A stretch of 64,000 nt of DNA from Psammoneis japonica (GCA_008632985.1 QPGO01000035.1:297899-361898), one strand, 5' to 3'; positions 15,413 to 49,600 are shown, counted from the first letter of the stretch. Translations and numbers: made by a program. The notes: generated by a model from the sequence alone, not told the origin.

Positions 15413-15658
15413 TATGCCTGCTATGGGTAAAATAAGAGATAATTACAAGGATAGAGCAGCTCTATGGAGACTTCGACAGGGTCAACAACCCATCAACAGA
15501 CACGCGGTGTGAAGCGTTTTGTGTTTTGTGACTTTTCTCTGTGCTCTCGCGTCTGTCCGCCCTCGCCTCGCGTTGGGTTCGTCCAACGTCACCCGGAAAT
15601 CTCGCCAAAACCGGAGAGGTAACAAAAAATCTCATTTTTTCTGGATTTGCGGATCACA

Positions 15659-21012: not shown

Positions 21013-21639
21013 GCGAGTTGGTGCTCTGACTGCAAAGCTACACTACTCTAGGTGGAGACAGTTTATCCTGGTTTTGTCTTAGTTTGTGGCCTTTGTCTTT
21101 TCTCACCTTGATGCGAATCTGATCGGCTGAAGATAGCCTGCTATTCATGGCACATTAAGCTGGTAGTTCCGTCAGTCATTCTCCTCTCTCACGAAAGGTC
21201 ACACTGGTACAGTAATGTTGGAGTGAGTCGCCATATCACCCATCCCTTGTCAATGGCACCAAGACTAGCTTGCTTTTCGCACGGCATGCCTTCGCCTCCA
21301 CCGCAATGCGTCCATCTCGGCGTGGCGAGATTGTTGCTCTGACCGTTCGTTGTAGAACACAATCGACCCGGCAAATATCAAATATCGGTATGACTGAAAA
21401 CGCTTATATGTGGCATGTCGGATTAATCTTCTCCCTTGCTTTCACCATTCCGACTCCCTACTCTATTAGGGCCCTCTAGGTACTATAGGTATTACCACGA
21501 GACCGCATGACATTGCGTTGGCATTTTTTACATTGATCCAACGTTTCGACGAATCTGGAGCCAGCTAACTTCTTTGAAACAAATTGCTGAAACGCGTTCT
21601 AGCTAGAGATACATGACAAACAACTGACGTAAGATCCCT

Positions 21640-23007
21640 CTACTCGTTGGGTTCCAACGATTTGAAAAAGTCCTTCCATTTCTTGTCCTTCAGCACCTTT
21701 TTTGCATCGACAGAACAGAACTTGGTGGTGTTTTTCAGTGCCTCTGCAATATCTGCTTTTATTCGTCTTTTGGATGAAGCGTGTGGCAACAGTTTAGATT
21801 CTAGTTTCCATGACCACCGTCGGAGGGTTCTAATCTGACTTTGGGAGAGGCACACCTGAGGAAAGTGTGATTGGACTAGTAAGACCCAACTTGGAAGCAT
21901 GCGTCTCCACCGCTTGTCGAGCGTCAGGTCTCGTCATGTTTGGATGCATCCACCCTTGTTGTTGTGCTTCAACAGCAATCATGTCGTGGTGCAACACTTT
22001 TGACGAGGAAGGATTTCTGGTCACAGTCGCGTGCATTTCTTGAAACGCCCGACACAAGTGTTGCGCTTCTGGTAACATCTTACAGAAAAAGCTTGTTCTG
22101 TAGTCTTCACTCTCATGCATGTTAAAGACCCAAACATCCGGAAAGTATTGCGCCCACTTGTCTCGAAGCGCGAGCAATCGGTGATAGTGTAGTTTCATAA
22201 TTTCATCAAAGTATTCGGGAAAGGTTGGAATGCGTTTCCCTCCTTCGGGACTTGGCCACATTCGGTGCTTTTTCTTGTCCTTTGGCTCATTTAACTGCGC
22301 GTAGTAGCTTGGCGCCCAATCATAAAAATGACGATACGTCAAGACGACTCGAACATGCCACTTGTCTAGAATGGGCACGAGATATTTCCACAAGTGGTTT
22401 CGCTCGTCCTCTTCATTCTTAAAGTGTGAAAAGAGTTCTTCGGATAGAAATGCAATCGTTTGTTTTTGCTGCTTTGCTGATAGAGCTTTTGACTGCTTTG
22501 TCCAGGTCATTCCATTTTTCGCGCATTCGTCTTCCCTACCCTGCGTACAGGCCCAAACTAGCTGATGTCGCTTGTCTCCTGTCGCTTGCCATAGTGGCCT
22601 AGATAGTGTATGCCATCTTGTAGCAGCAGCTCTTCATTTCGTGCTGCACCCCATTGAGCCGTAGTTGTTCCAGTCTTGGGAGGACCAACGTGCAAAATAA
22701 ACAACGGCTTGTCCTTGTCTTCCTTTCGCGGTGTCTTCTTTTTGTTTGGTTCGCCTTGATTCGCCTGTCTTTTCTCTTTTGCACTATCAACAATCTTTGC
22801 ATTTGCTTTACTCTTTGTTTTCTTGAATGAATCATCGTCTTCTTTGACTCTTTTGTAGACTTTGTCGATTGGTTTGAGCACGACGCCATCCTTTCCGATT
22901 GATGTTTGTCGATGGATCAGTCGCTCCTCGCGTCGTCCGCAAAGAGCAAGCCATATTACAAGTGGCAGCCCTAGAACGGAGACGATTTTCCCAACCCATT
23001 TAGACAT
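21640..23007 (-). CDS. Type II membrane sulfotransferase-like (P-loop) protein, frameshifted
   Basis: N-terminal TM helix, LHVGPPKTGTT, AFLSEELF and VVLTYRHFYDWAPSYY, split across three ORFs. Confidence 0.65.
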
Positions 23008-23409
23008 TGTTGAGCTTCAAGGATCGTTGTTCGAAGGCTTTGCAACTTGAATGGCGCCAACGCAATCCACCCCCCTATTAGGTTACCAACAATAGTGCGA
23101 CAGAATAATACGTGATTTGAGGTTTTGGAGAGATGGTGTTGAGGTTGGAGTCATCTTTTGAAGACGAGTCATTTTGTGAGGACATTTCAGTCATTTTTGT
23201 ATCCCTTATACAAGAAATGAATATTATCCAGCCAGACCAACTGAGACACACGACTTCTTTTGATGATGCGAAGCCTGTCATGCGAAAGAGCGATCAGAAC
23301 CCAGAGAACGTGACACCTGTTTTTCTGCAATGTTGGCCATAAATGCGAATTCTCGCCAACGTAGAGATGCGTACAATTCATACCACAAAAAAAACATAAG
23401 GAATCAAAA

Positions 23410-25120
23410 ATGAGCGACGACAGCAACACCCATTCTGAGAGCGACGATAAGTCTCCAGGAGACTCTCCTTTGTCTAACAAGAGGGTAAATAACGCAGAGG
23501 AAACGGAGGAAGCGTCTTCGGGCGATTCACGAGCTTATGGACGCATTGAAGGAGACTTTTTCGACACTGAAGAGACTTCAAGCGATGAGAACACCATTTC
23601 AAAGACGAGGATGATTCTCAGGCCCCCCAAGAGGCCTTCCAAACCTCAGCGCGACAGTGAACCTCCCAAAAAGAGGGTGGCGCGTGTGAAGGGTTCGAAT
23701 TCGAGGCCCCCTCTTAAAGAGCGAAATGTCAATCACCTTCAAACGAAGCTCGCTTCTGTCCAAGAGCAGCTGGCCACTGCGATCAAAGAACGCAAAGAAT
23801 CTGCCAAGACGTTGGCTGACGCCGAGCGGAAGCTTTCCAAGATGACCGAGCAGCTGTCCGAGAAGAACTTGAAGCTCCTTGGATGCAGGAAGGACGTGTC
23901 GGCATTGACGAAGGCGCTTGGAGCTGAGAAGTCACGCGTTTCGCAGCGCGACAAGAGCATCGCTGACAAAGAGCGAAAGATCGCCGCAGCTCAAGTGAAA
24001 CTTGACGCTGCCGCTGACTCCAAGAAAGAACTTGCATCCAAGCTTCGGACAGTCAATGGAGAGCTCAAAAGAGAAAGTAGAAAGGCTGCCAAGCTGGAAG
24101 AAGCAGCTGGCCAAGTCAGCTTCAAAGACGCCGAGATCAGTCGTCTCCGAGCTGAGGTCAGAGCGCTGGGTGCACTGCAATCAGAAAACAGGCGCCTGAA
24201 GCAGTCCATCAAGGACGAGGCTGTAGCAAAGAGGCAACACGAAGAAAAAATGGCGGAGTTGAAGCTTCAAGAGATCAAGGCAATCTCCAACAAGCGCGCT
24301 GAAGAGCACCAGTTCAAGCGCGATGCTGCAGCCGCCACTGCACACGCCAAGTCTGCTCATTTAGCAAGCAAGCATCACTTCACCACAGAAGCAAAAGAGA
24401 AAGAGCCAAACAGAAAAGAAACAGAGCGACAGAGGCGTTTGGAGACTGCACAAAGTGGAATTTCAGTGGCTTCTCAAATGCAAGGCCTTGGCTTTGGAAA
24501 CCAAGGCATTCTCCAAGCGGTGAGTGGCATGTGTTTGTTTTGTGCACGTGTTGTTTTGGTTGCATGTGATGCATGACTCACTGCTCCTTTTCCTTTTGAA
24601 TGCTTTCACTTTGTACAAGGCATTGGCGGATCGCCAGCGAGCAGCAAACAGTGTGAGCACCTCGTGTCGACTTGCAGTGCAAAGTCTGACTGATGACATT
24701 GTGCACACAAACTGACTGACATCATTGTGCACATTGTGTCTTTTCATGTTACACCAGGCATTGACGGATCGCCAGCAAGAAGCTGGAAGCATTCCACCTC
24801 TTGCTGTCGCAACAGACGGACTCCCCAGTGGTTGGGAGGAAGCCGATGACCCTTCCACGGGGAAGAAGCATCATTGCAATCGGTTGCTCGGAAAAACCAG
24901 GTGGACGAGGCCTGTTGTTGCGCCTCCAGCTCCTTCCAATCCTCCTCCACTGCCACCTCCGCCTGCGCCTCTTCCGCCGCCTCCTGAAGAAAAAGATTCG
25001 GGCAAGGAGAGCCATGCCGGCAGTCAGCATGAATCGACCTCGCAGGCGCAGCTTCAAGAAAGGTTTCCACATTGGCAAAACAAGTGCAATGCGATTGTCT
25101 TTCTCTTGCGGCAGAATTAG
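23410..25120 (+). pseudogene. Transposon cargo gene: long coiled coil, WW domain and proline-rich tail; spliced, TpA-mutated
   Basis: 388-aa coiled-coil ORF with a GTGAGT donor near 24520. A later exon reads LPSGWEEADDPSTGKKHHCNRLLGKTRWTRP (WW domain), followed by PPPLPPPP. Confidence 0.7.
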
Positions 25121-25318
25121 ACATGACAGCACAGTTAGATGACATTTAGGACACCTTGTTTACATTGCGTATAATCTGCCATTAAATTGCGACTCCCAAT
25201 CCATTCTGTAGCTTGCTGCTGCCGCAGTGAGTGGTGCGACGGTGCGACGGTCCGTTTGCAAAAAATTGAACAATGCTGCTGTACACTCTAGCTAGAGATG
25301 ATCCTAAAACCAATGTCA

Positions 25319-26449
25319 CTAACACAAGCAGCTGCTCCAGCAGCCGCAGAAGATCATGCTCTTAAGCATGAGATCTGTTGTCATTTCATTCAGGATCTGT
25401 TGCACATGAAAGATCACCACGTCCGTGTGGGGGCGCGGTTCGAATAAGCTGACAGTTTTTAGGCGCTGCGTCAGAGTCTGAAAGATGAGCTCTATTGGAT
25501 TCAACTTGGGTGAATAAGTGGGAAGGTGCCAAACGAGCACATTCACAGGCAAGCCGTCGGGCCCGGGAGTCGTCCACATTGGATCTTGAAGTGTGTCGGA
25601 TTCCGCACCTTTGTGGATGACAGCATTGTCCAACATTAAAATATCTCCACGATTGAACCACCCTTGAACAAGAAGCATTTCCACAAATGCCATGAAAGCC
25701 GCGCTCGTGCCATTCTCCACTCCAACACTGTGCTTGATGGGCGCTTTTGTCTCATCCACTCCCATGCATGCTGTGAGATTGTACCGCTGCCGACAGTCAC
25801 CATCAACAGCCACATTGTCAGCTGTTCCTGTCAAAGGATTGACTCTCCCTTTTCTGGAAAAAATGTTGGTTCCTTCCACATGCTTTTCATCTGCAAATTT
25901 GAGTCGACGAGGGTCAAACTGTGAGATGAAACGTGTGAACTCAAAGCAATGCACGATGTTCTCGGGTTTAAACTTGTCAAGTGGCACAAGATTGCTCTTT
26001 TTGAATGATGCCTTGAAATCAAACCGAGAAGCAAACCATTCTGAAATAAAAGATGGGGAAACCAATTTGCCATGCGTCACGAGCAGCTCTTCCACATGGC
26101 TCTCATTCGACCTTGAGGGTTGTTGGAAACGAAGCCACAAAAGGTGGCATTCCTCCTCTGGAGTCAAAGCAATGGAACCAACACCTCTTACTCGCTCTTG
26201 ACTGCGAGCAATTATATCAGGATCAACCACACAGCCATCCAAATCAACTTCATCCATTGCTTTCTTCGCAAAGTTCCGAGAAACACGGCCCAATCTTGCG
26301 ACCTCAGCAACCTTTGGCTCCTCGCCTGTGACTGATGTCAATTTCAGTTCTTCACACACCCTTGCAATCTCAAGCTTCTTCAACACGTCATATGACTTGC
26401 CACGCCAGTAAAATCTGCCATTGGCATTCACGTCAAGCCCCGACGCCAT
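25319..26449 (-). CDS. DDE transposase (IS630/Tc1 superfamily, DDE_3-like), probably inactivated by Tyr->Cys/His changes
   Basis: HTH-like N-terminus and catalytic motifs KFADE, MLDNAVIH and LPTYSPKLNPIE. Confidence 0.88.
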   Translation of the reverse strand: MASGLDVNANGRFYWRGKSYDVLKKLEIARVCEELKLTSVTGEEPKVAEVARLGRVSRNFAKKAMDEVDLDGCVVDPDIIARSQERVRGVGSIALTPEEECHLLWLRFQQPSRSNESHVEELLVTHGKLVSPSFISEWFASRFDFKASFKKSNLVPLDKFKPENIVHCFEFTRFISQFDPRRLKFADEKHVEGTNIFSRKGRVNPLTGTADNVAVDGDCRQRYNLTACMGVDETKAPIKHSVGVENGTSAAFMAFVEMLLVQGWFNRGDILMLDNAVIHKGAESDTLQDPMWTTPGPDGLPVNVLVWHLPTYSPKLNPIELIFQTLTQRLKTVSLFEPRPHTDVVIFHVQQILNEMTTDLMLKSMIFCGCWSSCLC

Positions 26450-27087
26450 GCTGCCGAGAATGCAAGTGTCAAAAATCCCAACTGGTGCTTTGCGTCCTCG
26501 ATGCGTCCTCGAATCTCAGGCACACACCAAATTTCTTTTCAAGTCAGTATGATATGAACAAAGATAAATTGTCTGATGCATTTGTGAAGGGTAGTCTTAT
26601 CTGTATTGAACGTTTCAGACGGCATGCCTTTACCGCAGACGTCCATTGCTTCTGGTGTCACACTTCCAGTAAATACACGTAGAAAATGTACTGATGTCTA
26701 CGCACCCCAAATGGGGCTTCGGGTCGCTTTCGAGGATTTTTAGCGCGCACCGCCCTGGAGGAAATCACGTGAAGCCACCCGCTTCACAGCCGAACCCCAT
26801 AGAAATTTGCGCGTGTGTCAGTTGGTCTGGCTGGATAATATATTTTAATAATAAAAGATTAAATAACGCATATATACAATATTGAAATTCCAAAAAATTC
26901 CGCGCGTTTGCACTTGATCAACGCGATCTTTCTGGAGAAGAATCTTTCGCCAAAATAAAGCCAAAGCATATCTCATCCATCCATCCATACGGTACAGTAG
27001 GCCTAAGATCCACTTGTTGCAGCCAACGTCGCTCAGCACACTGGAATTGCATTGGACAGACGCGTTCTCGAACACTCATCCATCGCC

Positions 27088-29798: not shown

Positions 29799-30005
29799 AA
29801 CATATGTCGATGGATGTCTCTATTCCTAAGTAACTCAAGCTGCAAGTTGGCAGAACAACACGTCACCCTTGCATCATGATCCCATTTCAAACTCAAAATA
29901 CTCCCTCCAACACACACTTCTTTCATTTTTTGTCGACATCGGCTTCGAAACAAGTTTGTTTCATAGCACTGCAGTTTGTTTACGTGAAAAGAAAGTCTTT
30001 CCACC

Positions 30006-31178
30006 ATGCCAATCTCCATCAGGTCCATGTCTTCCAATTCACTGGTCTCCTCCGGGAGTACCGGTAGCGGCGGCGCAGATAAAACCTGCGAAGGATGCGG
30101 TGTCCGCACGCACAAGAGCAAGAAGTTCGGCGTAAAGCCCGTCACGAACGCCTTCGTTTACGAAGGAATCTGTATGAAGTGCAACCCTGAGAACGTCCCT
30201 GAGGATGTACGCGATGCACTCCAGTGTTATTACGTCAAGCAGGAGAACAAGGCTCAGGAAAGCGCTGCTAAAGCGGAAGCGAAGAAGCTAGCCAAGTCCT
30301 CGAGTTCAGTGAGCTCGGACGAGGATGCCGGAACCTGCGAAGGATGCGGTGTACGTACGCACAAGAGCACGAAGTTTGGCACAAAGCCTGTCACTAACGC
30401 CTTCGTCTACGATGGAACCTGCATGGCATGCCGCCCACAGGATGTCCCTCCGGAAGTCCGCGATGCACTCCAGGGCTATTACACCAAGCAAGAGAAGAAG
30501 GCCGAGAAGAGCGCTGCTAAAGCGGAAGCTAAGAAGCAAGCTAAGGCCCTTTCCAGGTCCTCGAGTTCAGTTGTCTCAGACAGTGACGACAAGACCTGTG
30601 AAGGATGTGGTGTCCTTACGCACAAGGCCAAGAAGTTCGGCACGAAGCCCGTTACTAACGCTATGGTCTACGAAGGAACCTGTATGAAGTGCCAACCAGA
30701 CAAGGTCCCCCAGGACGTACGTGAGGCACTCCAAGGATACTACGCCAAGCAAGAGGAAAAGGCCAATGCCAAGGCGAATAAGGTCTCTAGGTCTTCTTCT
30801 ACGAGCAACTTGACCAAGCCGGTTGAAGCTCCTCCCGCTAATGAGTCGCCGGTCAAGGGCGAAATCACGGCTGATCAAGGCAGTGTCAGTACTTGCACTG
30901 AAATGGAGACTTCTTTCGAAGACTCGGTTGCAGTCAAGGTCGAGGACCATAGCGTTGTCACTGAGAATACCGACGATACTTGTGAGCCTGCTGATCCCGT
31001 GGATGACGCCGCTGATCCCGTTGATGAGCCCGTCGTCACCGAGGGACGTCGTACTTCCAAGTACGTCGCTGGTGCTGCTGTTGTAGCGGCGGGTGCGGCT
31101 GCTGCTCTCATGTTTGTCTCGGATGGAACTTCGAGCAAGGGCTCATCGCTTCGTAGGACTCAGACACGCGCTGTGTAG
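30006..31178 (+). CDS. Hypothetical protein with three CxxC-x~23-CxxC repeats and a C-terminal hydrophobic anchor
   Basis: Three copies of TCEGCGVxTHKxKKFGxKPVTNAxVYxGxCMxCxP followed by a helical segment. Tail YVAGAAVVAAGAAAALMFV. Intact 390-aa ORF. Confidence 0.85.
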   Translation: MPISIRSMSSNSLVSSGSTGSGGADKTCEGCGVRTHKSKKFGVKPVTNAFVYEGICMKCNPENVPEDVRDALQCYYVKQENKAQESAAKAEAKKLAKSSSSVSSDEDAGTCEGCGVRTHKSTKFGTKPVTNAFVYDGTCMACRPQDVPPEVRDALQGYYTKQEKKAEKSAAKAEAKKQAKALSRSSSSVVSDSDDKTCEGCGVLTHKAKKFGTKPVTNAMVYEGTCMKCQPDKVPQDVREALQGYYAKQEEKANAKANKVSRSSSTSNLTKPVEAPPANESPVKGEITADQGSVSTCTEMETSFEDSVAVKVEDHSVVTENTDDTCEPADPVDDAADPVDEPVVTEGRRTSKYVAGAAVVAAGAAAALMFVSDGTSSKGSSLRRTQTRAV

Positions 31179-32923: not shown

Positions 32924-33859
32924 CTTTCTTGACACAAAACTTCTTTAGAAGGCTTCACTGGTAATCACAAGACCTCCTTGGATGACTCGACAACTGCGAC
33001 GCAAGTGGAAAGGCAATAACGCTGCGTTGATTAGTTCGTGGGGTCTTGTAGTTTCAACGCTCTCAACTGTGAGCAGCCGCAAGCGGTGTTGTCGAGCGAG
33101 CGACGCGACGCGACGGTGAGGGTCGAAAGAATCTGTCCGTCATGCGAACATTCGATGGGGCGCCATTTTGATCCCAGCATGTCCAAACGAAATCAATGTC
33201 AAAGTCAGACTATGAAGTTGACCAGCTCCGAAGAAAAGGTGAGGGTTTTCAGTGGGACAATTCTGAGTGGTTTGAAACATGAGGCCAAGCTGTGCCAGGC
33301 CCTTTCAAGACGTGCTCTCGGACAGGCTCTGGGTGGGGCCAGAGGAGCTTGCATGCAGAATTCCATGTGCTCAACATTGCATGCAGCCCCAGCACCCAGG
33401 GCTGGTGGGACATGTCTCCAAACAAGGCATGAGCCTGATTCATGCCACTTTTGGGCCCACTGGTGCTTGGTGCTGGGGGGTCATTGCCGCTGGTGCTTGG
33501 CTTGGTGTGTGCGAAGCGGCGGGACCCAGTGCAGTTGCCAGCCAAAACTTGCAGTGTTCACATGTCACTGCGAATCAGGGCATGTGTTCAACACCACAGC
33601 ACTGCTCTTTGATGGCCAAGAAGGCACCACACTTCTTGTCAGCTTTTGCGACCTCTTCACGCACCTCAAAATGGGGTCGGCAAAACAGCCCCCCATCAAC
33701 ACCTCATGGCACAAAAGAGAAAAAAGACCCAAGATTGTGCTGGAGTCAGATTCTTGAAGGTGGGGGATGGGGCTCAAAATGTTGCAGGAGCATTGATCTC
33801 ATCAATGAGTGCAGCCAACCTCCAGGACTTGATCTGAGCTGCCGTGTCAATGTTGCGAG

Positions 33860-34226
33860 TGCACTGTGCTCGAAGAACGAGTGCAAACGAAAGTAGAACA
33901 GTGTGCGAAAAGTGGAAATTATAAGATTAAATTTTGCTCTGTGATTTTTGGTTTCTCCGAACGAGTTCTCAATGGCCTAAAGCTTCTGTACTGCTTCTAC
34001 AGACAAAAGGCCTTTCGGAGAATGTGTTCGTGACAACAGATTGTCCGGATGCGATTGCTGTTGACACGCAAGATGTCAACATCGTCAATCGATCGTATTT
34101 GCAATTCTCGACATCCGATCAACTCTGTGTGATCGTTCTGTCCTTTGTACGCATCCACGACTGTGGTGCGATTGACACACAAATAATGTGCAATCACAAA
34201 CATGCACGTGACAGTCGCGTGCTGCA
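33860..34226 (-). repeat. 3' LTR of the Gypsy (the more TpA-mutated copy)
   Basis: Colinear without indels with 38232-38598 and adjacent to the PPT. Confidence 0.93.
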
Positions 34227-37200
34227 TTCGCCTCCCTAATTGCACATTAGAGTCATTTGTAAGTGGATCATTCGACGGACATCGACAGTGTCAACAATGT
34301 CTCCACTTTCACTGCATTGTGCCATTGGCAACAACTGTTGTTGTTTTGTATGGGCAACATGGGGCCGTTCCAATTTCCGAATGTCTTTTGAGAGTGACAT
34401 TGTTTGTTTCTCACTTAACATGCACACAAGCAGTGTTGCGTCGAGTGTTCTCATTGACGTTCTTGTTGATGTGAACACAAGGACTAATTGTCCTGGAGCA
34501 AGTGTTTTTCCTGATGTCGATTGCACATGGCATCGTGCCCAGCACTTAATGTGCGCTCTTAATCACGGCGTTCACTTGCTTGCTTCTTGTGGATTTCATG
34601 TAGTTTGGCGGGCTTGCTTTACATGCCATGTTGCTCTGCTGCACTGCCACGTTTCACAAGCAACAACAAACGATGGTCAAAGACATTATGACCATTTCGT
34701 CTTGATGATCAATCCTGTGATGGTTGTGAATTCCATCATGGATTTTTTTTTTTGCACTTCAACCATCTATCAGTTGGATTTTAATCGTCATTTGGACGTT
34801 TCTTTCTGACATGCCGGTGTCATTTTGTCATTCCGAAGGCACTGGTTTTGTGCACCAAGTGGGTGAATGTCCATTTTTCTTTTCTTTTTCTAGATCTTTG
34901 GCACATCTCGTGTGTCGACATGATGCACATTTTAATGTCTTGCCTCGTACATTGTACAATGCAACCGTGCGGGTGTTGTGAGATTGTCTTTTGCCAGTGT
35001 GAAGTGGATGCGTATAATGTGCACCAATCTGTCACTGTTTTTTCCTAAATCGTCCTTTAAAAAGGCGATTTTATCCTTGTGACATGAGCATTTTTCGATC
35101 TCGCTCGCCTCCACGAAAAGTGTTCGTATGATGTGTCGCGTCCGACAATTTGGAGGGAATGTCTTTATCCCGTTTTAACGGCAGGACATTGTCGTAGGAT
35201 TCAATTTTCTATGGTGAGTCGGCTGATCGTGTCTGTCGCGACGATGTTCGCCTTGCCCTCGTTGCACTCTAATTCGGGACTGAAGTTGTCAACGTATGAC
35301 TTTGTCCGTTGTGTCTTATGATCCGTGTGTGTATAAATCTGTTGGCCAAACAGTGTGTTTTGGAATTTTACAAGTGTTTTCACTGTGGACAGAAGTTCTT
35401 TTTTCCGTTGTAACGCACAACATTGAAATCCGTGCATGACAACAACATGGTTTTTGATTTGACACACTCCACATTTTCGGAGACTTTTCATTCCGTACTT
35501 GCACTTTTGCCGTTTGACCTTTATTGAGGTGAATTTGGCTGGCATTGCACAGGAGATCGTTGAGACTACATGTCTCGACAACAGTGACGTATGACAACGA
35601 GATGTCGCAGTGTTCTTTGCGTTTTTCTCGTGTTGCGATTGCTTGAATCGCCTCCATTTTCTTTGTAATCGATTGCACATCGTTACGCATGGAAGTCTTG
35701 ATAGTTTATTTCAAGTTAAATGGTGAAGGACTTTTGTTGTTAACCTTCTAAGCGACTGTTCTAGTCGTTTGAATGCCGCACTAAGCTGTCACTTGCACAG
35801 GTGACATTTTGAAGTTACTTTTGTCAGGCACAAACGATCACATGTGGTCGTTCTGACAACTTCAAACCTGTTGTGAGTTCACTCAAGTGTTGCACAAAAA
35901 TGTCTGGGGCTCCACAGATTCTCATTGGAAGTCCACAGTGCTCATTTTCTCCCCACGGCATGATTTTCGTGTGAGCACGACGTGTGCTTTTTTCATTTGA
36001 CATGGTGGCATTCCATGTTTGAATCAAATAGATTACACACATGAAACGTTCTTGCTTCAATGGTATTTCCTGAATGTTGGGTAAAGGATGCACCACCTGT
36101 ACGAACCTTGTGCTGAGCTTCTGAGTGTCGGACACGGTCGAACTCGACCTGTTTTCTTTAGACAATGAGTCTCAGAGCGACTCATTCAGAGCAATTTCAT
36201 TCTTAAGACTTCAATCTTTCATAATAGGTCAAACTCCTTTTGATTGGACGCCTCCAAAGACTGTGATAGGAGAAGGTTCTCACGCGTCGTGGAATCGCGT
36301 CAGATTTTCCACGATGAGATCCACTGATGCTTCCCATGCATTCGTCTGAGGAACTTTTCAAAACGATTTCAACCTCTTGAGAAGAAGATTGAGTTGGTTG
36401 TGTTCATTTGGGTTAGATGCATCGCCGTAGTTGTCACTTGATTAAGATCGATGGCGTGATAATGTGAGTCGAGGACCATTGGTTCCATTATTAACTCTAT
36501 TCACGGCGTCATATTTTTCAATGTGATCGGTTTTCAGCTTGAAAACATCGGCATCGAAGAGTGTATGAACATTCTTCATAAGGTAATTGCTTCTTCCCAT
36601 TAGATTTCTTCATTTGCGTAGTCCAATATGACTTGCAGGACTGGACATTAAGTCGCGTCCCATGATCATATCATTCGAACCTGAAGAAAATTTGGTGTTT
36701 TCAACATATACTGTTTGAATATCAGTATGCCTTAAATTTTCGCATAGTGAGAACTGAATTCGGTGTTTACTATCAGTCGTAAAGAGCTCACCCTTGGTTT
36801 CCCAAGTTTTTGGTGGCGGATTCTTGTGTTCTCAACTTTCGCACGAATTTGCGCAAAATTATGGTTGACGATGTTCCGTTATCGATAGGAACACGTAGAT
36901 GCTTTTTTTTTTTTTTTTTCTCTCCTTTCCCAAGGAAGTATTCATATAAATGATGACTCCTGGACTAGTATGAATTATTTCTGCCTTTTTTCTAGGCTTC
37001 CTAATATCCAGTAAAGCATATAATTCGTGAATAGACCAAAATTATTCTTCGGATTCAGTCTGGATCATCCGATCAAATTGGTATTTTTCTTCACTGAGGG
37101 TATCAGAATCTGATTCTTTGCCCTTATGCTCTTTTTCTTTGTTCAAGGAACTCGCTTTGAGTATTTTTTGAACCGCCTGATCAATCATGACGTTCATCTC

Positions 37201-38231
37201 TTTTTTTGCGAGCGGCATTTTCGTTATCGCGACGCGACCGCGTGCGATTGCCATTTGAACGGCGCATTTTTGGGTCTCTTTCAGAGTCACCCTTGCACTC
37301 TTTTGCTAGTTCATTTTTAGAATAGCTTCAATCCGTGATGTAGGTATTCTTTTTTCAAAGATAAGACCTTGCATTCACTTTGGATTGTTCTGGTACCATG
37401 TGGGAGACCATTTTTGGAACCAAATTTGGAACCTTTTTTATTTTGGAACCAACTGCGCTATCAGAGCCTGAGTTGATATGTATTTTCGTCACGGACGTCA
37501 TGAACGACCTTTAGATGACTCAAAACTTAATCAGCTCATCAAGGATGAGTTGCAATAGTTGATTGTTTTGGACAGTAGACTGATGCTGCCATCCTTGCGG
37601 TGCGAGTGATAGCCAACAGCTCACGGCTCGGTTTCCCGCTAGATTCAACATAGAATCGATTGAAGGGTCGTATGGACGCTCTTCATTGACCTCTTGGGTC
37701 GAATAGGCACTCTCTTGCTGCTGAGAGCCTTGGGTTTCTTCAGATCATCTCGAAAATAATAATTCTGATTCTGAAGTGCAATTCTTGGAGGACATGAGAT
37801 AAGAGACTCTTAAGGTACTTTCCAACGGTTCCATCTTGCTCTTGGACTCGAGGCTCGTCGATTCGGTCTCTAAAAACTCTCCAATAGTCTCTCCTTGCAT
37901 GCCAGACGTATTTCTCGGACCTGATCGACTCAAGACTTGAAATTCTACCCAACCATGACTTGGTGTGGATATTTCGACAATGCTGTGCTCTTGTAGAGTC
38001 CTTGGTCCTGAGACACTTGGAATGGATCGTATTAGAACGAATCTTGTCATTTGCTAGACGAAAAACAGCGTTCCATCTTGAGGTACTGCTCGGATTGAGC
38101 TTCTTCCGCTCGGAAATCGATTCCAGCAGAACTGATGCGATTCGTTCCTGTTTATAGAAGAATTTACAAAGGCACATTAGTTAAAATTTTCATTTTCCGT
38201 GCTTTTTACCTTCTGAGGTGTGTATACACAA

Positions 38232-38598
38232 TGCACTATGCTCGAAGAACGAGTGTAAACGAAAGTAGAATAGTGTACGAAAAGTGGAAATTATAAGATT
38301 AAATTTTGCTCTGTGATTTTTGGTTTCTCCGAACGAGTTCTCAATGGCCTAAAGCTTCTGTACTGCTTCTACAGACAAAAGGCCTTTCGGAGAATATATT
38401 CGTGACAACAGATTGTCCGGATACGATTGCTATTGACACGTAAGATGTCAACATCGTCAATCGATCGTATTTGCAATTCTCGACATCCGATCAACTCTGT
38501 GTGATCGTTCTGTCCTTTGTACGCATCCACGACTGTGGTACGATTGACATATAAATAATATATAATCATAAATATGTATATAACAGTCGCATGCTGCA
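38232..38598 (-). repeat. 5' LTR of the Gypsy (the less mutated copy)
   Basis: Colinear with 33860-34226 and retains the TATATA-rich tract at about 38548-38582. Confidence 0.93.
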
Positions 38599-40377
38599 CG
38601 AGAGAAGCTGAGAAGAAGTGTGCTGATGACTGGTGGCTGCACAACAAGAGGAAAAGAGCAAAGGAGCTGCCCAACAGCAAGCAAGCCATGACCCACTTTT
38701 TTGTTCAAGTTTGTCACCTCAAATGCCTGAAACAAAAGGACTTGTTCTTTGGAAATGGCGCCAGACTTTGCCCCCTTGTTCTCTGGCCCCAAATGAGAGA
38801 GCACACTTGGATTGACACGGGCATGAGAAGAGCCTCCAAGCCTCCTCTCATTGTTGCTTCATTTGATCTTTTCAGACCAAGCTCAACTTTTAACTTGCAT
38901 CACAGCATCATCTTCTGTCAACCAATGTCGTTCAATTGCAAGTGCTCAACAGGACGTCCAGGAATGTCTCGGTCAGTCACTTGACGTTTTTCTGCATGTT
39001 GGACAAATTGATGACAATGAGCTTCCACGCAGACACCTGCATGCTTTTTGTACGAGCAAGGGTCGCTGATGGAATCTTTTTTGGTTTTGGAGTTTGTTGA
39101 CGCATCATGCATCATCCCAACCACATCAAAATCTGCATCATTGGCTCAACTTTGATGAGAAACCCACCCAACAATTGGGGTTGACGAGGCATCTCATCAT
39201 GATGCACATCCAGGAAGTCTTTTGGCAGAGCACTGTGTGTGCTGGTCCATCTCAAATCAAGTGGATGTTGGCCACCAGAACAGCGGTCAATCGTTGTCAC
39301 CCTTCCTCAGCAGCCAGCAGGGGGGCATGCAATGGTGGAATGACTGGAGGAGGCCCCGTGTCTGGTGCCACTTTTGCAGATGATGGAAGTGCCGCCACAG
39401 CTCCCACCTCCCATGGAGTGCACAATTGAGACGAAAAACCCTTGTGGCCCTCAACAATTCTTTCTTTGACCCACTGGTGAGCTCTGGAATCTGATGGAAT
39501 CTCTGTGACCTGCAAGTGTTTGAACCTGCGAGTGTTTGAGCACAGAACAATGGAGTCAAATCTGCAAAAACTGTGCTTTCTGCAGGAGAAACACTTCAAT
39601 GATGCCCGCATCATTTTTGTTGTTGTGTTGTTGTTGCTGTTGTTTGCAATGCAGCATTGGGTGTTGCTCTGCAAGGAGTCCTCCACACAGGATTTGAGGC
39701 CAGTTGCTTCTCATGCCTTCAGGCCACACCAAACACTTTGATGGATGTGCGTGCTGTGAGCATCCCCCCAAGCAAGACGGAGCGAGGAGCGGCTCGGCTG
39801 CTGCGCCACTCCCTTGCTGCATGAGGAGAGCCTCCAAGCCTCTTGGCTGAAGCTCAGTGGTCTGCTTTAACACACCATCATTGTTGCTTCATTCGATCTT
39901 TTCAGACCAAGCTCAACTTGCAACTTGCATCATGGCATCATCTGTCAGCCGATGCCTCATTCGATCGATTTCAAGTGGTCAGTCATTTGACGTTTCTGCA
40001 CGGACATTCGAACGATAATGAGCTTCCACATAGAAATCTACGTGCAAATGTACGGGCACGGATCGCTGCTGGAAGAGAATCTTTTCTCGGTTTTTTCAGG
40101 TTGACGCATCACCCCGCATCCGCATCCCATTGCATTTTGCATGCTCGATTCAACACTCAACACCATCGCGTTCAAAAGACGTCAATCCCCACCCACGGAA
40201 CACGGGGTTCACCCAACTTGCTCTACCCAGCCTCATTGTTCGAAGCAGGAGCACCAGTGACGAAGTTTTGTCGAAAGGCCGCTTGCTCTTGAACGATTCA
40301 GATTCGTTCATCCCGAAAATCTAAGTTCGCGTTTGAGCAGATTCTACACAAGAATTATAGTAAAACCTTATTGACTC

Positions 40378-43317
40378 ATGGACTGGCCAGAGAACAACGG
40401 CCCGCTTCCAGCTACGCGAGATGAATTAGAAAAGGCACTCGAGGTGGTGGAGGAGGAAATGATGGATGCAGGGCGAAAGAAAGATTTTGCGCAAGCACAA
40501 GAAAAGGAACAGTATCTTTTGCAGCTAGAAGCGCTGAAAGAGCTCGTGCAGTCCAACAACAAGGAGGAAACAATCGAAACGTTAAACCAAGAAATAGACA
40601 AGTGCGTCCAGGAACGACATTGGAAAAAAGCAAAATGGCTTGATGACGCTTTGCTCAAAATGACGCAGCCTAAATCGCCAGAAACGAGCACCATTGAAGC
40701 CGTTGGAGAGGATGACTGTAACAGCTGCATCCTTCGAGATCACATGACAGTCTTACAGTCATATCCCTTGGCGTGGAGGGATAGGGACAAAGTGATACAT
40801 CCGTTCCCTCTTCCACCGGACTTTGAGCGAGAAGAGAAAACCGTTTTGCAGGCACTGCGTGATGCGACTGCAGACAGGCCACTCGAGATTGGAGTGTCTT
40901 TCTTTGGGGCGACCACCTATCGACTGGCAGCGTTCCTCGCTGCTCCAGGCAACCGTATTTTGCATTTATCGGGACATGGTGATGAAGGAATTCTTGCCAT
41001 AGAAAGTTGTGGAGCCTTGCAGTATTTGACAAATCATGAATTGAAAGAGTTGGTGGAGAACGGACCAGGGCATTTGAAGTTTGTCTTTTGTTCTGCGTGT
41101 TTTTCTCGTACCGCAGGGGAGGCCTTTTACCAAGCCGGGGTACCTCATGTCGTATGCTGCGAAGATAATGTGGATGACATGGCAACCATTGAGTTTACCC
41201 GTAATTTCTACCTGCAGCTTGCCAGTGGACAATATTTGGACGACGCGTTCAAACTGGCCAAGGCTGCTCTCAAGGTAGATGCCGCGGTCGGCGATGCCAA
41301 AGTCATTCTCTTACCCGAGAAAGACGAGGACGATCCTTATCACCATGTACAGATATTTTTCAAAGCATCTGCGGGAGAAAAGAACATCGTGAAGACCCCC
41401 GGAATGGTCAACCGCTCCATGCAACTACCTTCTTCTCCGCCTGGATTCTGTGGTAGACAGTTGGATATGTACAAGGTGATTGACTATCTCAAGAGCTCGA
41501 ATTTCGTCCAAATTTCAGGAGTTCCAGGTATCGGAAAGACGTCTCTCGCCCAAGCTGTGTGTGCCTACATTCACAGACGCATGGACATATTTCTGCTGGA
41601 AGATATCTTTTGGTTGCCGCCTCTGAGCAACAACCACAGTGGCAATGGTGTTGCTAGGTGCCTCCAGGAGGTCGTGCAATCAATAATGTCCAACGAAGTT
41701 AAAGCTGATTGTCACGGCTACAAATTATGCTGCGAGAAGGCAACCGGCCTCCTTCAGTGCATTCGTGGGCTGATATTCATTGATGCTTGCAAAATGCACA
41801 CTACATCTGCATTGGCAAAATTACAGCTGTTTCTCGAGATTGTTTTTCGTGGTGCGTTTCGAGTCTCTGTCGTTCTTATCACCCCTGCAGGTGAAGAGAT
41901 AAGAAGCTAGATTCTACCATTTGACGCGCGCATGGAGCTTGGTCCTATAGATATGAAGGCATCGGCGCTTCTATTTGGCAACCAATGCCAATTGGTGCGC
42001 CAGGGCCGGGATCCGGCAATTCGTACATCACAAGAACTCAAAAATTTGCTTGTCCTCCCAACCTACGCCAGCGCAACGGAAATCATGCCTTCCATGTCAA
42101 AGCGATGCTCTGAAATATTCAGTCGGATCGGAGAGGGGAATCCAAAGTGGATACTCGAAGCAGCTGACGCGATGACAGCAAACCCGCTCTTGTACGACGA
42201 ACTAATTAAAATCGGAATGAGAGAAGAATTTGACCGTGGGAACTTTGAGACTCGTGCTAGGGTGGACCGTGAATGCAAGCGCATCAAAGAGAAATTAGAG
42301 GCTGCGGCCGAACGTTTTGACTATGGGCAAGCAGCACAATTGGAATCAGAATTAGAGGAGCTGGATCAGCTAAAAAAGGTGCTGCCTACTTTAGGAAGAC
42401 TCGAACGTGAGGAAAAAGACTTGTGTGAACGCCTAGCGGAAGCGGACAAATCGAAACATTTTGATACGGCGAAGGACCTCTACTCTGGACTGGTCGAACT
42501 CAGAGAAAAAATCAGGAAAGAAAGGGAAGCCCTGGCAGATAATGAGGTTAGAAAAGACAAGCAAGATGGTGCTCCACCGATTCAGCAAAAAGATTCACAA
42601 GATGATGAGCGACCTCTATCTCCTAGCGCGATTGAAACCTTGTCCGGAATTTGCTCGTTCACCGTTTCTGCTAGCAATCCTGACCCCGAGGACTTCTCCT
42701 TTACGTTGGCCATAACCCAGTCTTCAGTTGTGGATTTTGACTTTGACTGCTCGGGCGGCGTTTCTGCCATTGTTTGTGCCACAAACGAAAACTGCCACCC
42801 TGTTACAGGCACTGCTATTGGGGCCATTAGTGAAGCCGGAGGCAAGGAATTGCAGGATGCTGTAGATGGACTCGAGTCAACAGAGGAGAGCAATTGGGGC
42901 CCCGTCCGGTGTCCGACGGGTGAAGCCAGAATAATTGGGCCTCCCACAGAGACACGGCACTATGGAAGTCTCAAAGTTGAGCACGTGATCTTTGCTGTAG
43001 GACCGACCTATGCAGATGATGATGGACCGGATGCCCTGTCACACAAGGATGAGCTGCTTCGCCTCGCCTACAGGTCCAGCCTCGAACGGGCAAAGGAACA
43101 CCACGTCGTAGCAGTTGGATTTTCCCTCATTGGAGCGGGTCACCGAACCGGTGGTAATTTGGAAAGGCCTTTGCGCATTGCGATTGAGACAATCTCCGAC
43201 TTTCGAGGATACAAGGAATTGAGGCACGTTGAACTTTTCGCTTTCAAACATCGTGAAGCCCTTCTCCTGAAGCGAATTGCTCACGACGTCGCGAAACACA
43301 CCGAAACTCTAAACTAA
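40378..43317 (+). CDS. Multidomain UVR-CHAT(caspase-like)-P-loop NTPase-UVR-Macro protein, interrupted by one in-frame TAG at 41908-41910
   Basis: CHAT His/Cys motifs ILHLSGHG and VFCSACFS. FCGRQLD...ISGVPGIGKTSLA (NB-ARC/STAND-like). UvrB/C-like helices such as LEAAAERFDYGQAAQL. Macro motifs CPTGEARI, HVIFAVGPTY, LAYRSSL and GFSLIGAG. Both ORFs are in the same frame. Confidence 0.8.
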
Positions 43318-45013: not shown

Positions 45014-45200
45014 GCTTTTTTGTCAACTTGCTATTTTTGACATTCTGTGGAGCCATAACGGTGCCGGCAATTAGAGGATGCTGTTTTGCATTCGTTCCCT
45101 AGCTACATTCGAACATGGCAGGGCGATGTGCCGTTGTGGATTGTGGAATTCCAGAATGGTGCGGTGTGGTGGTGCGGGGTGCGGACGGATCGACAAGGCC

Positions 45201-47387
45201 GGGAGTTGCATGAAATGTCAAAATTTTCATTTTTCCCTGCAAAAACGCACAGAATGTCAGAGAGACCTGCCTGCACGTGAGTGCCGCCACAGTCTGCACG
45301 ATGCTGCGAAAGTTTGTGCACTTGCCACCAAAATGCTGCTCGCACTTTTTGCCAGGGGACATGCCACAGACACACAATGTTGCATTTGGCTGCAGGACAA
45401 ATCCTGTGTTTTTGGGGCTCTGTTTGATTTGACAAAATGTCGAAATTCCATGGAAGGTTTCTCAACAATTGCCTTTTTTCCCAACCAGTGCTGAGACAAA
45501 ATGCCCCCAGAAATGCAGGTGGTTGTGTCTTCACCAGACCCCGCCAAAATTTCTCGTTGAGAAGACAACCCACTGGATGGAATGAGAATGTTTAAATGAT
45601 GTTGCACAGTGCGTGAAAAATGACAACCTGCACTCACTCAATTGGGTTGGCATGGTGACATCAAGCACTGAAATGAACGACAAAACGGTGCGACAATCGA
45701 TGATGACGACACCTTCTATCGGTGCCTGCCTGTGCGCTCATTTTCTACTGTATTCAAATTTGTATATCCATATATACATCATAAGTAGTTGCCATGAGCA
45801 CATCACGTTGTCGGTCACGGCGTTTCTGCACGCATGATGATGCGCATGGCACCGTACGACTGCAAGAGACGCCGTTGAGTTCCCTTCTCGATCCCGAACT
45901 CCGATTTGAACCAGTCACGACTGTCTCAACCTCATCGCTTCGTGCGATAGTACAATTTCAAATTCAAACCCGCCAAATAGCTCCAACCGCCAAAACCAAA
46001 AAAGGCCTCTTGGGGGGGACTGGGGCTAGAGACTATTTTGGATTATTGTCGTTCAAGATTCCCTTGCGTGCCGTTCCAAAAGCGTTCCAAAAGCGTTCCA
46101 AAAGCGTTCCGAGAACGTTCTCATATGCACTAATTCGCGCGGAAATCAAACTTTGGAGCCGGTCAATTCGCCAATGAGACATGTGATGCATTGTAATTAG
46201 TGCACTATTGTTAGAACTATTTGAGTATGGCACAATAGTGTAAAAGTTTAACAGATTATATGGATTTATTGCAAAAAGGTACACCCGTCAAAACAGGTTT
46301 CTATTTTCTCTAAGAAAAAGAACGGCTGGTAGAAGTCTCAATAATTTTGAGTTACAGTGGCTATAAGTTGAACTATAAGGGTGTGTTGTAACTACTAGTA
46401 TTGTTTGACAATAAACCATATCTATAACAACCGCCAATAGCTCCAACACGGAAATACCATTCGACGAAATAGGCATTTCGTCATTCCCGTGTTTCCACCG
46501 TTCCGGGACCGTACCAAAAGCGTTCCCGAAGGGAATCTCTCTAAAAGGCCTAACATCAAAACATTGTTTTTAGACGTTGGAAACGAATGAGAACCCTGCC
46601 CGATAATACATGGAACCATCAATCCACCTACGGCAACAAAAACACTGCTGTATGGCAATAGCGCGGTATCAATCATTTTAGCATAGTGTAAAACATCAAA
46701 TGCGCAACACACGACTGTACCACTCACCATGCAAATGCGCCTGCCCAGAGCCACAGTAGATTGTCTTGCAAGGACAGTCATTCAGAGGCAGACAAGATCG
46801 GAATGGATTTGGAACCAATGGGTTCGCGTCATACTTGAGCACTTTGCAGGACATACAGTAGTGTGCGAGTTGTGGGGCCTTCTTCAAGATGAAGGCAACC
46901 TTTCTCATGGGTTCCTGCCCACTCACTTGTTGTGTGCCCTTGTTTTCTGAATCTGCATTGTTCTGAAACCATTTTGCCGGGAATCTGTGGTGGAGCACAC
47001 GAAGACACGATAAGAAAATGGTTTTGTGTCGGAATAGAGTTAATTGTAAATCTGGACTTGTTGCGTACCATCATTCCAATCTCTTTTTGAAAATCAACGT
47101 ACTGGCATTAGCTTCACCATCTTATCATCTTAGATTGACTGGTAACACAGGTTTATGGATGATAATGGCATGCACGGTGACGGTGGACGGCACTGACTTT
47201 CGCTTCGCATCAACGAACCATCGCCGCGTTCGCCGTTCGACCCCATCTTCTATCTGGTGTCTGGTGTTCGCATAGCCCAAAATGCAACGTTTTAGGGGAT
47301 GTGTAAAATGAATTATCGTCACGAAAAAACACGAAAAACCACGAAAAACAGGGAAAAACGAAAATTTCGACATTTCATGCAACTCCC
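45201..47387. mobile_element. Putative non-autonomous TIR element of about 2.2 kb with 39-bp imperfect TIRs
   Basis: GGGAGTTGCATGAAATGTCAAAATTTTCATTTTTCCCTG at 45201-45239 matches the reverse complement of 47349-47387 with 2 mismatches, both CG/CA. No transposase recognised; TSD uncertain (possibly CCG). Confidence 0.7.
46072..46110. repeat. Short tandem repeat (CGTTCCAAAAG) x ~3.5
   Basis: Read directly: cgttccaaaagcgttccaaaagcgttccaaaagcgttcc. Confidence 0.8.
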
Positions 47388-47519: not shown

Positions 47520-49600
47520 CGTTTTTGTGTCTAACCTGTTGTTATGTGTCAGGTTGCAACGGAGTCCAACCAGAACTCCAATCACCACATCTTCCTCTAT
47601 TTTCATCGGAAGCATGACAAGGGTGCCTGCTCAATTGTGCAGAGGGCATGGGAGGTGGGATGCGAACTCCCTTTTCCTCTGGTCGGATTTTGGCGAGAGC
47701 CTTTTCATTGACCACTCAGTGGTTGATGATTGCAGACTTTTTCATGTCTGTCAGGCAGTCGGGGGGTCGGGCAGTCGGGCAGTTTGTCCTTCAGAATTTG
47801 AGAGTGTGTCCCTCGGATTTTGGAGCGGCATGTGTTGTTCAGCACAAATTGATTCTTCTGATTTGGAGAATGATCATCAAGGACATTGGAGGTCATGGGG
47901 GCATCCTAAAAAATTGATGAATTCTCTACGATGGGTGCATGGGGAGCTGTTTTTCAGATGAGCTCGAAAGCACTGTGAAACTGGGATTGCCAGTGCGGCA
48001 TGTTGAAAACTGCACTCAGCTTTGAACGAAGACAATTTGTCATGGATTGCACACAAAAAAGTCACATTGAAAAAAAGCATGTTGAAAAATGAGTGGGTTT
48101 GTGCGATGTGCCATTTCAGCGATGAATTGAAAAAAAAGAGTGTCCGTGCACCTCGCTGCAGCCCCAAAAATGGCATGATCCATCAAATGTGACCGTCATC
48201 CACGTGGCCACTCTGCCACTGCAATGCCAGCCCCCTGTGGCAGGGCCCTGCACAAGCACAGGCAGTGCAGCATGCAATGGCACACACCCACACCCACACC
48301 CACAAAGAAAGACAAGTGGTCAATGCTCCCCGTGGGCCTGGTTTCTGGCTGGCCGGCAACTGCCTCACAAAAAGCAAAAAGTTTCAAAACAATGATGCCA
48401 ACAATGCCATCAGTGGCCGTTGTCCCTTTCCACAAGAAGCAGTCATTGGGACCCAACAAAATGCCAATGTTTTGCATTGTCCATGCAGTGGGTGCCTTGA
48501 TGCTGTGCAGTGACGGGGTCTCCTCAAAGGGTTTCACACAATGACTGTGACTGGGACAAGAACAATGCAGCAGCAAAGCCCTCTTCAGGGTTCTCAATCA
48601 ACTTGGGGCTTCTTCAATGGCAGTTCCCTGCCATGATTGTCACAAAACCAGAAAGCAAAGGGTGGCAGTCTACAAGCTGATTGTCTTCAATTGCTCTGCA
48701 GTGAGAAAAACAGTGTGAATGCATTTGGTGAGTGTGAGAAAAAAGCAAAGAAGGAAAACAAAATGAAGTGCAGCACTGGAGTAAAAAGAGGAAAGAAAGG
48801 CAAGGCCAAGAAAGGAAGAAAAAAATGAGGAAGGAATGCAAAACAAAGAAGAGCATCAAGAAGAAGAAGAAAATGCACAAGAAGACACAGAAGGACTCCT
48901 CCACCATTGTCTTCACCAACATCTCCACCAACGTCTCCACCAACAGATGCCCCACTCTGCCACCAAGTCACGGCAAGCAGCAAATTGCTTGAAAAGGCAT
49001 GAGAGAATCAAGAATGTCCTGGTTGTGCTTTGTTTGTGTGAAACCTTCTCTCACACTTATTTCTTCTTTCAAAAATTTAACTGTGCAAGTGCAGCCTTTT
49101 GTTGGAGCAACTGATGCAGCCAGCAGGTTGCAGAGCATTTTGTGGTTGGGCAAAACACCAGAGGAGGCAAATTTCAAGTGCAACAGTTGACATGCTACAA
49201 GATGAAATGTTTGCAAGATGCAGTGAAGCTGGGGCACCAAGAATGCAGGGCTTTGTTGTTGTTCCTGAGAAAGACCAGTTGACAATTCACATTCATCAGC
49301 AGAATCAGAGTGCAGTGGGTGCCGCTGTCATCCCGGAGGCATCCTGATCTTAAACATCAAGCAGACAGGCCATAGAGTGTGTGCAAAAGGCTGTGATCCA
49401 AAAGCACTTGGATGCTGGTGCTGGATGAGAGTTCATGAGAAAGCAGCAGCTGCGTGCATGTCAGCCTGTTGCCCATGTGAGAGCTTGAGAAAATCAGGCT
49501 CATGCATGGTGCGTGAACAACAAAGCTGCTAGCACATGTAAGAAAAAAGAAGAAAAACAAAGATGACAGATGCCCAAGTTTAGCCTGGCTCTCTTGAGTA
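47520..49600. repeat. Heavily degraded, unclassified repeat relic (TpA- and CpG-depleted)
   Basis: Very few TA or CG, an excess of TG/CA, and overlapping Cys/His-rich junk ORFs in all frames. Confidence 0.55.

Follow-up and report, generated by a model that had tools for sequence, protein, structure and literature searches.

A 64,000-nucleotide stretch of diatom-like DNA from Psammoneis japonica (QPGO01000035.1:297899-361898, hereafter the window) carries a gypsy-like long terminal repeat (LTR) element whose two repeats have diverged in one direction and at one dinucleotide. Together with a nearby DDE_3 transposase frame and a set of islands almost devoid of TpA, this element leads us to propose that a hypermutation process acting on DNA very probably turns TpA into TpG or CpA in regional patches of sequence derived from mobile elements. 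Its spectrum, TpA specificity, use of both strands, polarity and regional pattern are directly visible in the comparisons presented here, and it affects a DNA transposon as well as a retroelement. The process is patchy, near-absolute in its specificity for TpA and able to reach saturation. Conversion outpaces CpG decay in the young element; the old islands are CpG-depleted too.

The two LTRs align over their full length without indels and differ at 22 sites, all of them transitions, with G or C in the left LTR and A or T in the right LTR at every one (P = 4.8e-7 for a single polarity by chance). Twenty-one of these differences lie inside a TpA of the right LTR, which offers 60 TpA positions (P = 5.6e-16 for at least 21 of 22); they occupy 20 dinucleotides, one of which is changed at both bases. 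The rate of change is therefore 21/60 at TpA positions against 1/307 elsewhere, a difference of about 107-fold (Fisher 2e-17). In the left LTR the 20 dinucleotides read as 10 TpG, 9 CpA and 1 CpG, which argues that both strands are hit about equally. The lone difference outside TpA, at 34219/38591, is a CpG on the left and a CpA on the right, and none of the 21 right-LTR CpGs has changed in the left copy. These counts reproduce those of the initial annotation, which had reported from a manual alignment 22 substitutions of one polarity and no indels, 21 of them in right-LTR TpAs, and about 20 unchanged shared CpGs (21 by our count); its example strings agree with our alignment as well. Because the LTRs of a single integrated copy differ, the process acts on DNA and after integration. 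Converted TpAs are clustered (9 runs, shuffle P = 0.023); the autocorrelation of the residual TpAs is flat, and a search for nucleosome-like phasing found none.

LTR termini of the TG...CA type, a target-site duplication and a polypurine tract agree with the criteria for Ty3/gypsy elements. The matching CGAG duplication on both sides makes one insertion event likely, and a minus-strand purine run adjoining the left LTR sets the orientation: the element lies on the minus strand, and the left LTR is its 3' LTR. By tblastn, 16 weak relatives (32-43% identity) fall on the minus strand at about 35177-35491, over the RNase H remnant listed in Table 1; four of the 16 were scanned, and PF17917 was found in all four. 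The remnant itself shows one clear Tyr-to-Cys change, too few to count. A six-frame Pfam search of the interior returned no domain at E <= 0.01, and thus no reverse transcriptase or integrase, and we looked for a primer-binding site and recognised none. The element is probably a degenerate or non-autonomous copy of a gypsy-like LTR family. No further copy is present in the window at the DNA level, and a 24-base word from the LTR gave 0 matches in metagenomes. The insertion lies within a TpA-free island: TA/(TA+CA+TG) is 0.00-0.04 in both flanks, 0.07-0.21 between 33860 and about 36360, and 0.19-0.45 in the remainder up to 38610. On this composition of its interior, the left part of the element is partly converted.

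The same 22 differences could also be read as CpA or TpG turned into TpA, if the polarity were reversed and a process like repeat-induced point mutation (RIP), or another deamination-type change of C to T at CpA, had struck the right LTR and left the left LTR ancestral. The state of the LTR family bears directly on this choice. Our read evidence comes from three runs (X1, X2 and X3) of one sample in one study, possibly the assembly's own source; no RNA run is among the runs containing the region. X2 and X3 gave just 0.44-0.47 Mb of contigs each, which cover the stretch compared with the reads nowhere but within the high-copy LTR element, and we therefore regard both runs as so low in coverage that assembly succeeded for high-copy sequence only. 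Their contigs match the right LTR at 38239-38360 (1 difference), 38331-38389 (1) and 38362-38419 (0), and over longer spans at 38390-38598 (1) and 38335-38598 (2). Jointly they span 21 of the 22 differing sites, and two of them extend into the sequence found after the left LTR. Contigs that are nearly identical to the right LTR and run past the left-LTR junction indicate that the usual family member has TA alleles there. The initial annotation had named a family consensus with TG/CA as a result that would overturn its polarity; the abundant variant carries TA at these sites, and this check favors the annotation. At the 39 places where X2/X3 contigs and the window disagree, the window has G/C and the contig A/T at 31, the reverse holds at 8, and there are 0 transversions; the divergence (Table 1) drops from left to right, agreeing with the composition gradient within the element. 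The right LTR moreover has no clear RIP signature (TpA/ApT 0.77; (CpA+TpG)/(ApC+GpT) 1.04), the usual cut-offs being about 0.89 and about 1.03, and the composition of its neighbourhood is the opposite of what RIP leaves. One site, 38295, favors the RIP-like reading, as the element has TpA there where most of the family has TpG. With a host that is not fungal, and with the transposase evidence below, we find this reading hardly credible.

In X1, unique parts of the window stand at a word (k-mer) depth of 51-61 and assemble into near-perfect contigs, and the summed depth over the LTR element, 8,574-25,102, corresponds to roughly 150-450 copy equivalents at a likeness of at least 80%. The family is variable, with 1,076 of 4,992 aligned contigs less than 90% alike. 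Transitions account for 639 of 758 variant places, the window having A/T against G/C in other copies at 373 and the reverse at 266. Among 40 of the 758 places listed, a window TpA faces CpA or TpG at 5 and the reverse holds at 2, about 9 involve CpG, and 7 are double differences, TG against CA at one dinucleotide, as would be expected if an ancestral TpA (or CpG) had decayed on different strands in different copies. Contigs of X1 also lead from 38505 back to 34097 or from 38269 back to 34267, and leave out internal stretches of 58-615 bp; the LTR family includes deleted, tandem or otherwise rearranged copies.

Given such a family, the left LTR might owe its G/C alleles to recombination or gene conversion with an already converted family member, in which case the mutator would be real and the LTR pair would not be its clock. 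The size and variability of the family (1,076 of 4,992 contigs below 90%), joints such as 38505 to 34097 that reveal other arrangements, and the grouping of converted TpAs in blocks (9 runs, P = 0.023) would all suit such an exchange. However, the matching 4-bp duplication speaks against exchange between elements, differences outside TpA, at 1 of 307 positions, give no hint of a foreign tract, and the gradient extends about 2.5 kb into the internal region. We consider this explanation improbable, and favor conversion of the left LTR in place.

Protein outgroups give the polarity at a DDE_3 (Tc1/mariner-like) transposase frame elsewhere in the window. Aligned with 13 homologues, the frame has 146 conserved columns, 9 of them Tyr. 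Three of the nine Tyr columns are kept, against 102 of the 137 other conserved columns; the remaining six now encode His (CAT, CAC, CAC) or Cys (TGT, TGC, TGC). Ile has likewise changed to Thr (ACA) and to Met (ATG). The C-terminal Gly-Tyr-stop of the homologues is Gly-Cys-Trp (TGG) in the window copy, whose frame continues past this point and contains no premature TAA or TAG stop. In a leave-one-out control, the 11 distant homologues had 0 His or Cys at conserved Tyr columns. Ancestral Tyr codons cannot come from CpG, and therefore the change in the transposase ran from TA to CA/TG. The initial annotation had argued that loss of Tyr codons in nearby element proteins sets the polarity, and the argument holds for this transposase. 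Both the replacement of conserved Tyr by His or Cys and the lack of premature TAA/TAG stops also contradict the RIP-like reading. The observed/expected ratio (o/e) of TpA in coding sequence is 0.48-0.95 in 39 closer metagenomic relatives versus 0.19 in the window copy; over whole loci of 41 distant relatives it is 0.38-0.77.

The two nearest homologues of the transposase (P0001 and P0002) themselves have His or Cys at 2/7 and 1/7 conserved Tyr columns, and the same process may act in related organisms. Two of the 39 closer relatives (L008 and L020) have the lowest coding TpA o/e (0.48-0.49), with CpA/TpG at 1.3-1.4 and CpG at 0.54-0.73, a composition that could reflect the same signature in weaker form.

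The third line of evidence is regional. TpA o/e is 0.49 over the whole window. Eight islands, 11,271 bp in total, have TpA o/e 0.07, CpA 1.54, TpG 1.65, CpG 0.49 and a GC content of 0.509, and the remaining 52,729 bp have TpA o/e 0.56, CpA 1.18, TpG 1.17, CpG 0.98 and GC 0.469. The 1,478 bp of 61933-63411 contain zero TpA versus 58 expected at the background rate of the window. Across the islands CpG o/e ranges from 0.14 to 0.7, TpA/ApT from 0.00 to 0.23, and (CpA+TpG)/(ApC+GpT) from 1.65 to 2.24. Five short low-TpA segments (4921-5310, 13371-13680, 14321-14880, 19711-20100 and 51241-51620) were excluded because their CpG o/e is 0.91-1.35 and CpA and TpG are not both raised. Island edges are sharp. 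The islands flanking the LTR element stand at a depth of 57-79, about single-copy, and apart from the LTR element itself the DDE island is the only sequence of identifiably mobile origin. Polarity from TpA to TpG/CpA is thus supported by the family state, by Tyr loss and by island composition.

Searches for the origin of the islands returned little. Island ORFs (open reading frames) gave sub-threshold Pfam matches only, a six-frame Pfam search of three islands gave nothing at E <= 0.01, and the ORF at 23401-24573 had no homologue in 8,000 scored candidates. A self-comparison in a purine/pyrimidine alphabet, for whose two letters E-values are not valid, showed no hidden repeats between islands beyond the known ones, and an old duplicate (38848-39107 / 39878-40111) has too many indels to be informative. 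In X1, the island at 38600-40100 is present as two variants at about 35-44 depth each, versus 51-61 for unique sequence, which differ by clustered transitions and small indels; they may represent two haplotypes, or a close paralogue that diverges fast inside the island. On the rim of the first island, at about 1630-1750 on the plus strand, a frame carries a protein-kinase-like catalytic-loop and a DFG-type motif; the long frame beside it has no Pfam match.

Table 1. Features of the LTR element, the transposase frame and the TpA-poor islands (coordinates within the window)
Feature	Position	Strand	Remarks
Left LTR	33860-34226	minus	367 bp; 3' LTR in the element's orientation; converted copy; 10 TpA, TpA o/e 0.35
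Right LTR	38232-38598	minus	367 bp; 5' LTR in the element's orientation; 30 TpA, TpA o/e 0.86
Target-site duplication CGAG, left copy	33856-33859		4 bp, abuts left LTR
Target-site duplication CGAG, right copy	38599-38602		4 bp, abuts right LTR
Polypurine-tract-like run AGGGAGGCGAA (minus strand)	34227-34237	minus	adjoins left LTR; sets the element's orientation
Internal region	34227-38231	minus	no intact gene
Remnant of gypsy-type RT (reverse transcriptase)-associated RNase H domain	35177-35491	minus	PF17917 E 0.003, below cut-off
Divergence from X2/X3 contigs	35045-35277		8 differences in 233 bp
Divergence from X2/X3 contigs	35451-35753		18 differences in 303 bp
Divergence from X2/X3 contigs	36233-36427		4 differences in 195 bp
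Divergence from X2/X3 contigs	right LTR		about 0.5%
DDE_3 (Tc1/mariner-like) transposase frame	25322-26515	minus	TpA o/e 0.19; stop lost
TpA-free island	1-1750		6 TpA in 1,750 bp; continues beyond window
TpA-poor island with DDE transposon copy	23491-26540		segments 23491-25140 and 25641-26540; depth 2-4x unique sequence
TpA-free island, left flank of the insertion	33041-33859		~3 TpA in ~880 bp; CpA/TpG o/e 1.6; CpG o/e 0.55
TpA-free island, right flank of the insertion	38599-40030		5 TpA in 1,450 bp; CpA/TpG o/e 1.7; CpG o/e 0.39
TpA-free island	45081-45740		4 TpA in 660 bp
TpA-free island	47541-49520		11 TpA in 1,980 bp; CpG o/e 0.27
TpA-free island	61921-64000		4 TpA in 2,070 bp; CpG o/e 0.14; continues beyond window

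TpA loss on this scale could in principle be an artefact, with modified bases in silenced DNA misread as G or C, or with repeat copies polished incorrectly. The read evidence does come from one sample, and the 19 of 5,055 pieces listed include no bridging contig on which the left-LTR alleles could be read. Nevertheless, X1 contigs at depth 51-61, whose reads we take to be accurate from their depth and contiguity, reproduce TpA-free sequence: one contig over 29983-33640 has four other letters in 3,653 bp and takes in the TpA-free 33041-33640. Paralogues in which one dinucleotide reads TG in one copy and CA in another are not expected of a systematic miscall, and the codon changes in the DDE frame are coherent. 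Base-calling is thus an unlikely source of TpA loss, and we hold artefact in either form to be very improbable.

Several observations weigh against the hypermutation that we propose. No protein is recognisable in six of the eight islands, so that a mobile origin is established just for the DDE island and the LTR element. The right LTR adjoins a saturated flank yet is almost untouched, and spreading from the flank therefore fails as an explanation. Family differences do not all follow the predicted direction: at 38295 / 33923, 81% of the family depth has TpG, against TpA in both LTRs of this element. Either this TpA marks the lineage of the copy, or most copies were converted there. No contig bridges the unique flank to the left LTR among 19 of the 5,055 pieces listed, and the TpA context of the X2/X3 differences falls outside those pieces and the 40 of 758 variant places listed. 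The reads, again, all derive from three runs of one sample, perhaps the source of the assembly. Further, no deaminase or TET/JBP domain was found in 127 distinct window ORFs scanned (30 of at least 200 amino acids, 18 others, and 79 of the 97 with 110-199 amino acids).

The initial annotation had described the mutator as one not known to be reported. However, the same TpA-only, two-strand A:T-to-G:C spectrum has been described in the rhizarian alga Bigelowiella natans (bioRxiv 10.64898/2026.01.13.699255). In its mutation-accumulation lines, 231 of 302 new mutations fell in two integrated viral regions, and 230 of these 231 changed A to G or T to C, each of them within a TpA; hypermutation was seen in 11 of 15 lines, with de novo rates per site and generation of about 1e-7 to 1e-6 in some of them (bioRxiv 10.64898/2026.01.13.699255). 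TpA-depleted coding sequences of B. natans were enriched for DDE endonuclease and reverse transcriptase, and Mettrop et al. propose an ADAT2-like adenine deaminase (bioRxiv 10.64898/2026.01.13.699255). We found no literature report of TpA to TpG/CpA hypermutation in diatoms.

The likeness between the two systems is close. In both, nearly every change is A to G or T to C, TpA is the target, and both strands are hit, with TpG and CpA as products; in both, the changes appear restricted to blocks within otherwise normal sequence, and the long-term trace is depleted of TpA and enriched in CpA and TpG. Subwindows starting at 34001, 39001, 45001, 48001, 62001 and 63001 reach the thresholds of the preprint when the mean of CpA and TpG o/e stands in for its combined Rho. 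No run of three such subwindows occurs within the stretch, whose islands are 0.7-2.1 kb or run off its ends. The systems also differ. The host of B. natans hypermutation is a rhizarian, whereas the host here is diatom-like. De novo events in B. natans struck a single-copy giant-virus insert and a virophage insert, in contrast to the LTR pair, DNA transposon and islands of the window. The islands are 0.7-2.1 kb and near-saturated (TpA o/e 0.07), against 0.45 for the B. natans viral region, and the old islands are also CpG-depleted (o/e 0.49). Finally, the evidence in B. natans comes from mutation-accumulation lines, whereas the window is known from sequence comparison alone.

Better-known processes fit less well. 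Fungal RIP shares with our data clustered transitions at one dinucleotide in mobile-element DNA, on both strands and after integration. It turns CpA into TpA, however, leaving AT-rich, stop-filled DNA, whereas in the window TpA is destroyed, GC is raised (0.509 versus 0.469), and TAA/TAG stops and Tyr codons vanish. We rejected it since direction, composition and host all fail: RIP belongs to fungi with RID/Dim-2-type enzymes, and the nearest named relatives of the amidase in the window are diatoms. RNA editing by ADAR, which prefers a 5' U (bioRxiv 10.64898/2026.01.13.699255), and cDNA editing by APOBEC likewise produce deaminase-type clustered transitions in retroelements, but they act on one strand before integration, so that little difference between the two LTRs and a single predominant product would be expected. 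Such editing fixed by retrotransposition was rejected as the LTRs differ, TpG and CpA products number 10 and 9, and a DDE transposon is affected. Decay of 5-methylcytosine leads to the same end products, TpG and CpA, and probably operates in the old islands too, where CpG o/e is 0.14-0.7. For the LTR pair it was rejected: it cannot remove TpA, all 21 right-LTR CpGs are unchanged, and it could account for one difference at most.

We propose that the LTR element would have inserted into an island already nearly emptied of TpA. After insertion, the left LTR and roughly the adjoining 2.5 kb would have been partly converted (20 of 30 LTR TpA sites), and the right LTR would have remained near the abundant form of the family. 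The underlying event would be an A:T to G:C change on either strand of TpA, in which adenine may be deaminated to hypoxanthine by a deaminase requiring a 5' T. This is the most likely chemistry in our analysis, in line with the proposal made for B. natans, although we would place it a little short of an even chance. ADAT/TadA enzymes edit A34 after an invariant U33, a context that fits the 5'-T rule. A site hit once is no longer TpA on either strand, which fits the 19 single changes and 1 double change in 20 sites.

Alternatively, thymine at TpA might be oxidised to 5-hydroxymethyl- or 5-formyl-uracil by an enzyme of TET/JBP type, mispair with G and change to C, with no adenine deamination. 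Because TpA is self-complementary, sequence does not distinguish T to C from A to G, and there is precedent for the target: hydroxymethyluracil in dinoflagellate DNA prefers TpA, and base J prefers the TpA steps of trypanosome telomere repeats. Set against this, we know of no thymine-oxidising enzyme or oxidised base of TET/JBP type in diatoms, nothing in the window bears on the idea, and the B. natans authors favor a proposed ADAT2-like deaminase. We regard oxidation as rather unlikely, and retain adenine deamination as the leading candidate.

How the process would choose its targets is a separate matter. The initial annotation had envisaged a repeat-targeted mutator acting on both strands. 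Action on both strands is borne out by the 10 TpG and 9 CpA products; repeat targeting is not, as most LTR copies stay TA-rich. Single-copy flanks, a DDE island of two to four copies, and this TA-rich majority of LTR copies together speak against a simple repeat-induced rule.

An amidase at 49794-51740 has a best match of 61% identity; its best named relatives are in a Bacillariaceae metagenome-assembled genome (54%), Fragilariopsis kerguelensis (44%), and an ochromonad and a haptophyte (39%). DUF6824, which we take to be a diatom-associated Pfam family, is also present. Judged by the relatives of this single protein and by this single Pfam family, the host is most likely a diatom, and it is not B. 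natans. On the plus strand at 40375-43317, a frame with a CHAT protease and a STAND NTPase is followed directly by a Macro-domain frame, an immune-like architecture; the CHAT/STAND frame begins about 350 bp beyond the TpA-free island ending at 40030. On the minus strand at 11856-13783, the aspartate carbamoyltransferase catalytic domains and both PyrI regulatory-chain domains share one frame, an apparent catalytic-regulatory fusion. Tandem repeats of about 250 bp, 77-80% alike, occupy 30078-30764 within a frame (29988-31178) that has weak Pfam matches only.

An A:T to G:C mutator confined to one dinucleotide is the mirror image of well-studied mutational defences such as RIP, APOBEC editing and 5-methylcytosine decay. 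The sole prior report of TpA hypermutation is one 2026 preprint on one rhizarian alga (bioRxiv 10.64898/2026.01.13.699255), and our findings suggest that the phenomenon is widespread in the SAR supergroup (stramenopiles, alveolates and Rhizaria) beyond a single species. TpA-free islands rich in CpA and TpG offer a cheap genome-wide marker for it, and LTR pairs, identical at insertion, are a natural timer, with TpA positions here changing about 107 times faster than others. There are consequences for annotation as well: converted elements retain long open frames because TAA and TAG are erased, and their similarity to their own families is lost. The signature also points towards a DNA base editor that occurs in nature and obeys a strict sequence rule. 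It is tempting to speculate, though we think it somewhat doubtful, that diatoms and B. natans share an old, chromatin-guided form of DNA editing that erases TpA from invading DNA. If so, this defence would remove every TAA and TAG stop and every Tyr codon along with TpA, working to saturation in patches of tens of bases within single integrated copies and leaving TG/CA-rich, TpA-free islands between ordinary genes. Its enzyme would be a natural adenine (or thymine) editor that acts on double-stranded DNA, or on DNA that is transiently single-stranded, and that strictly requires a 5' T.

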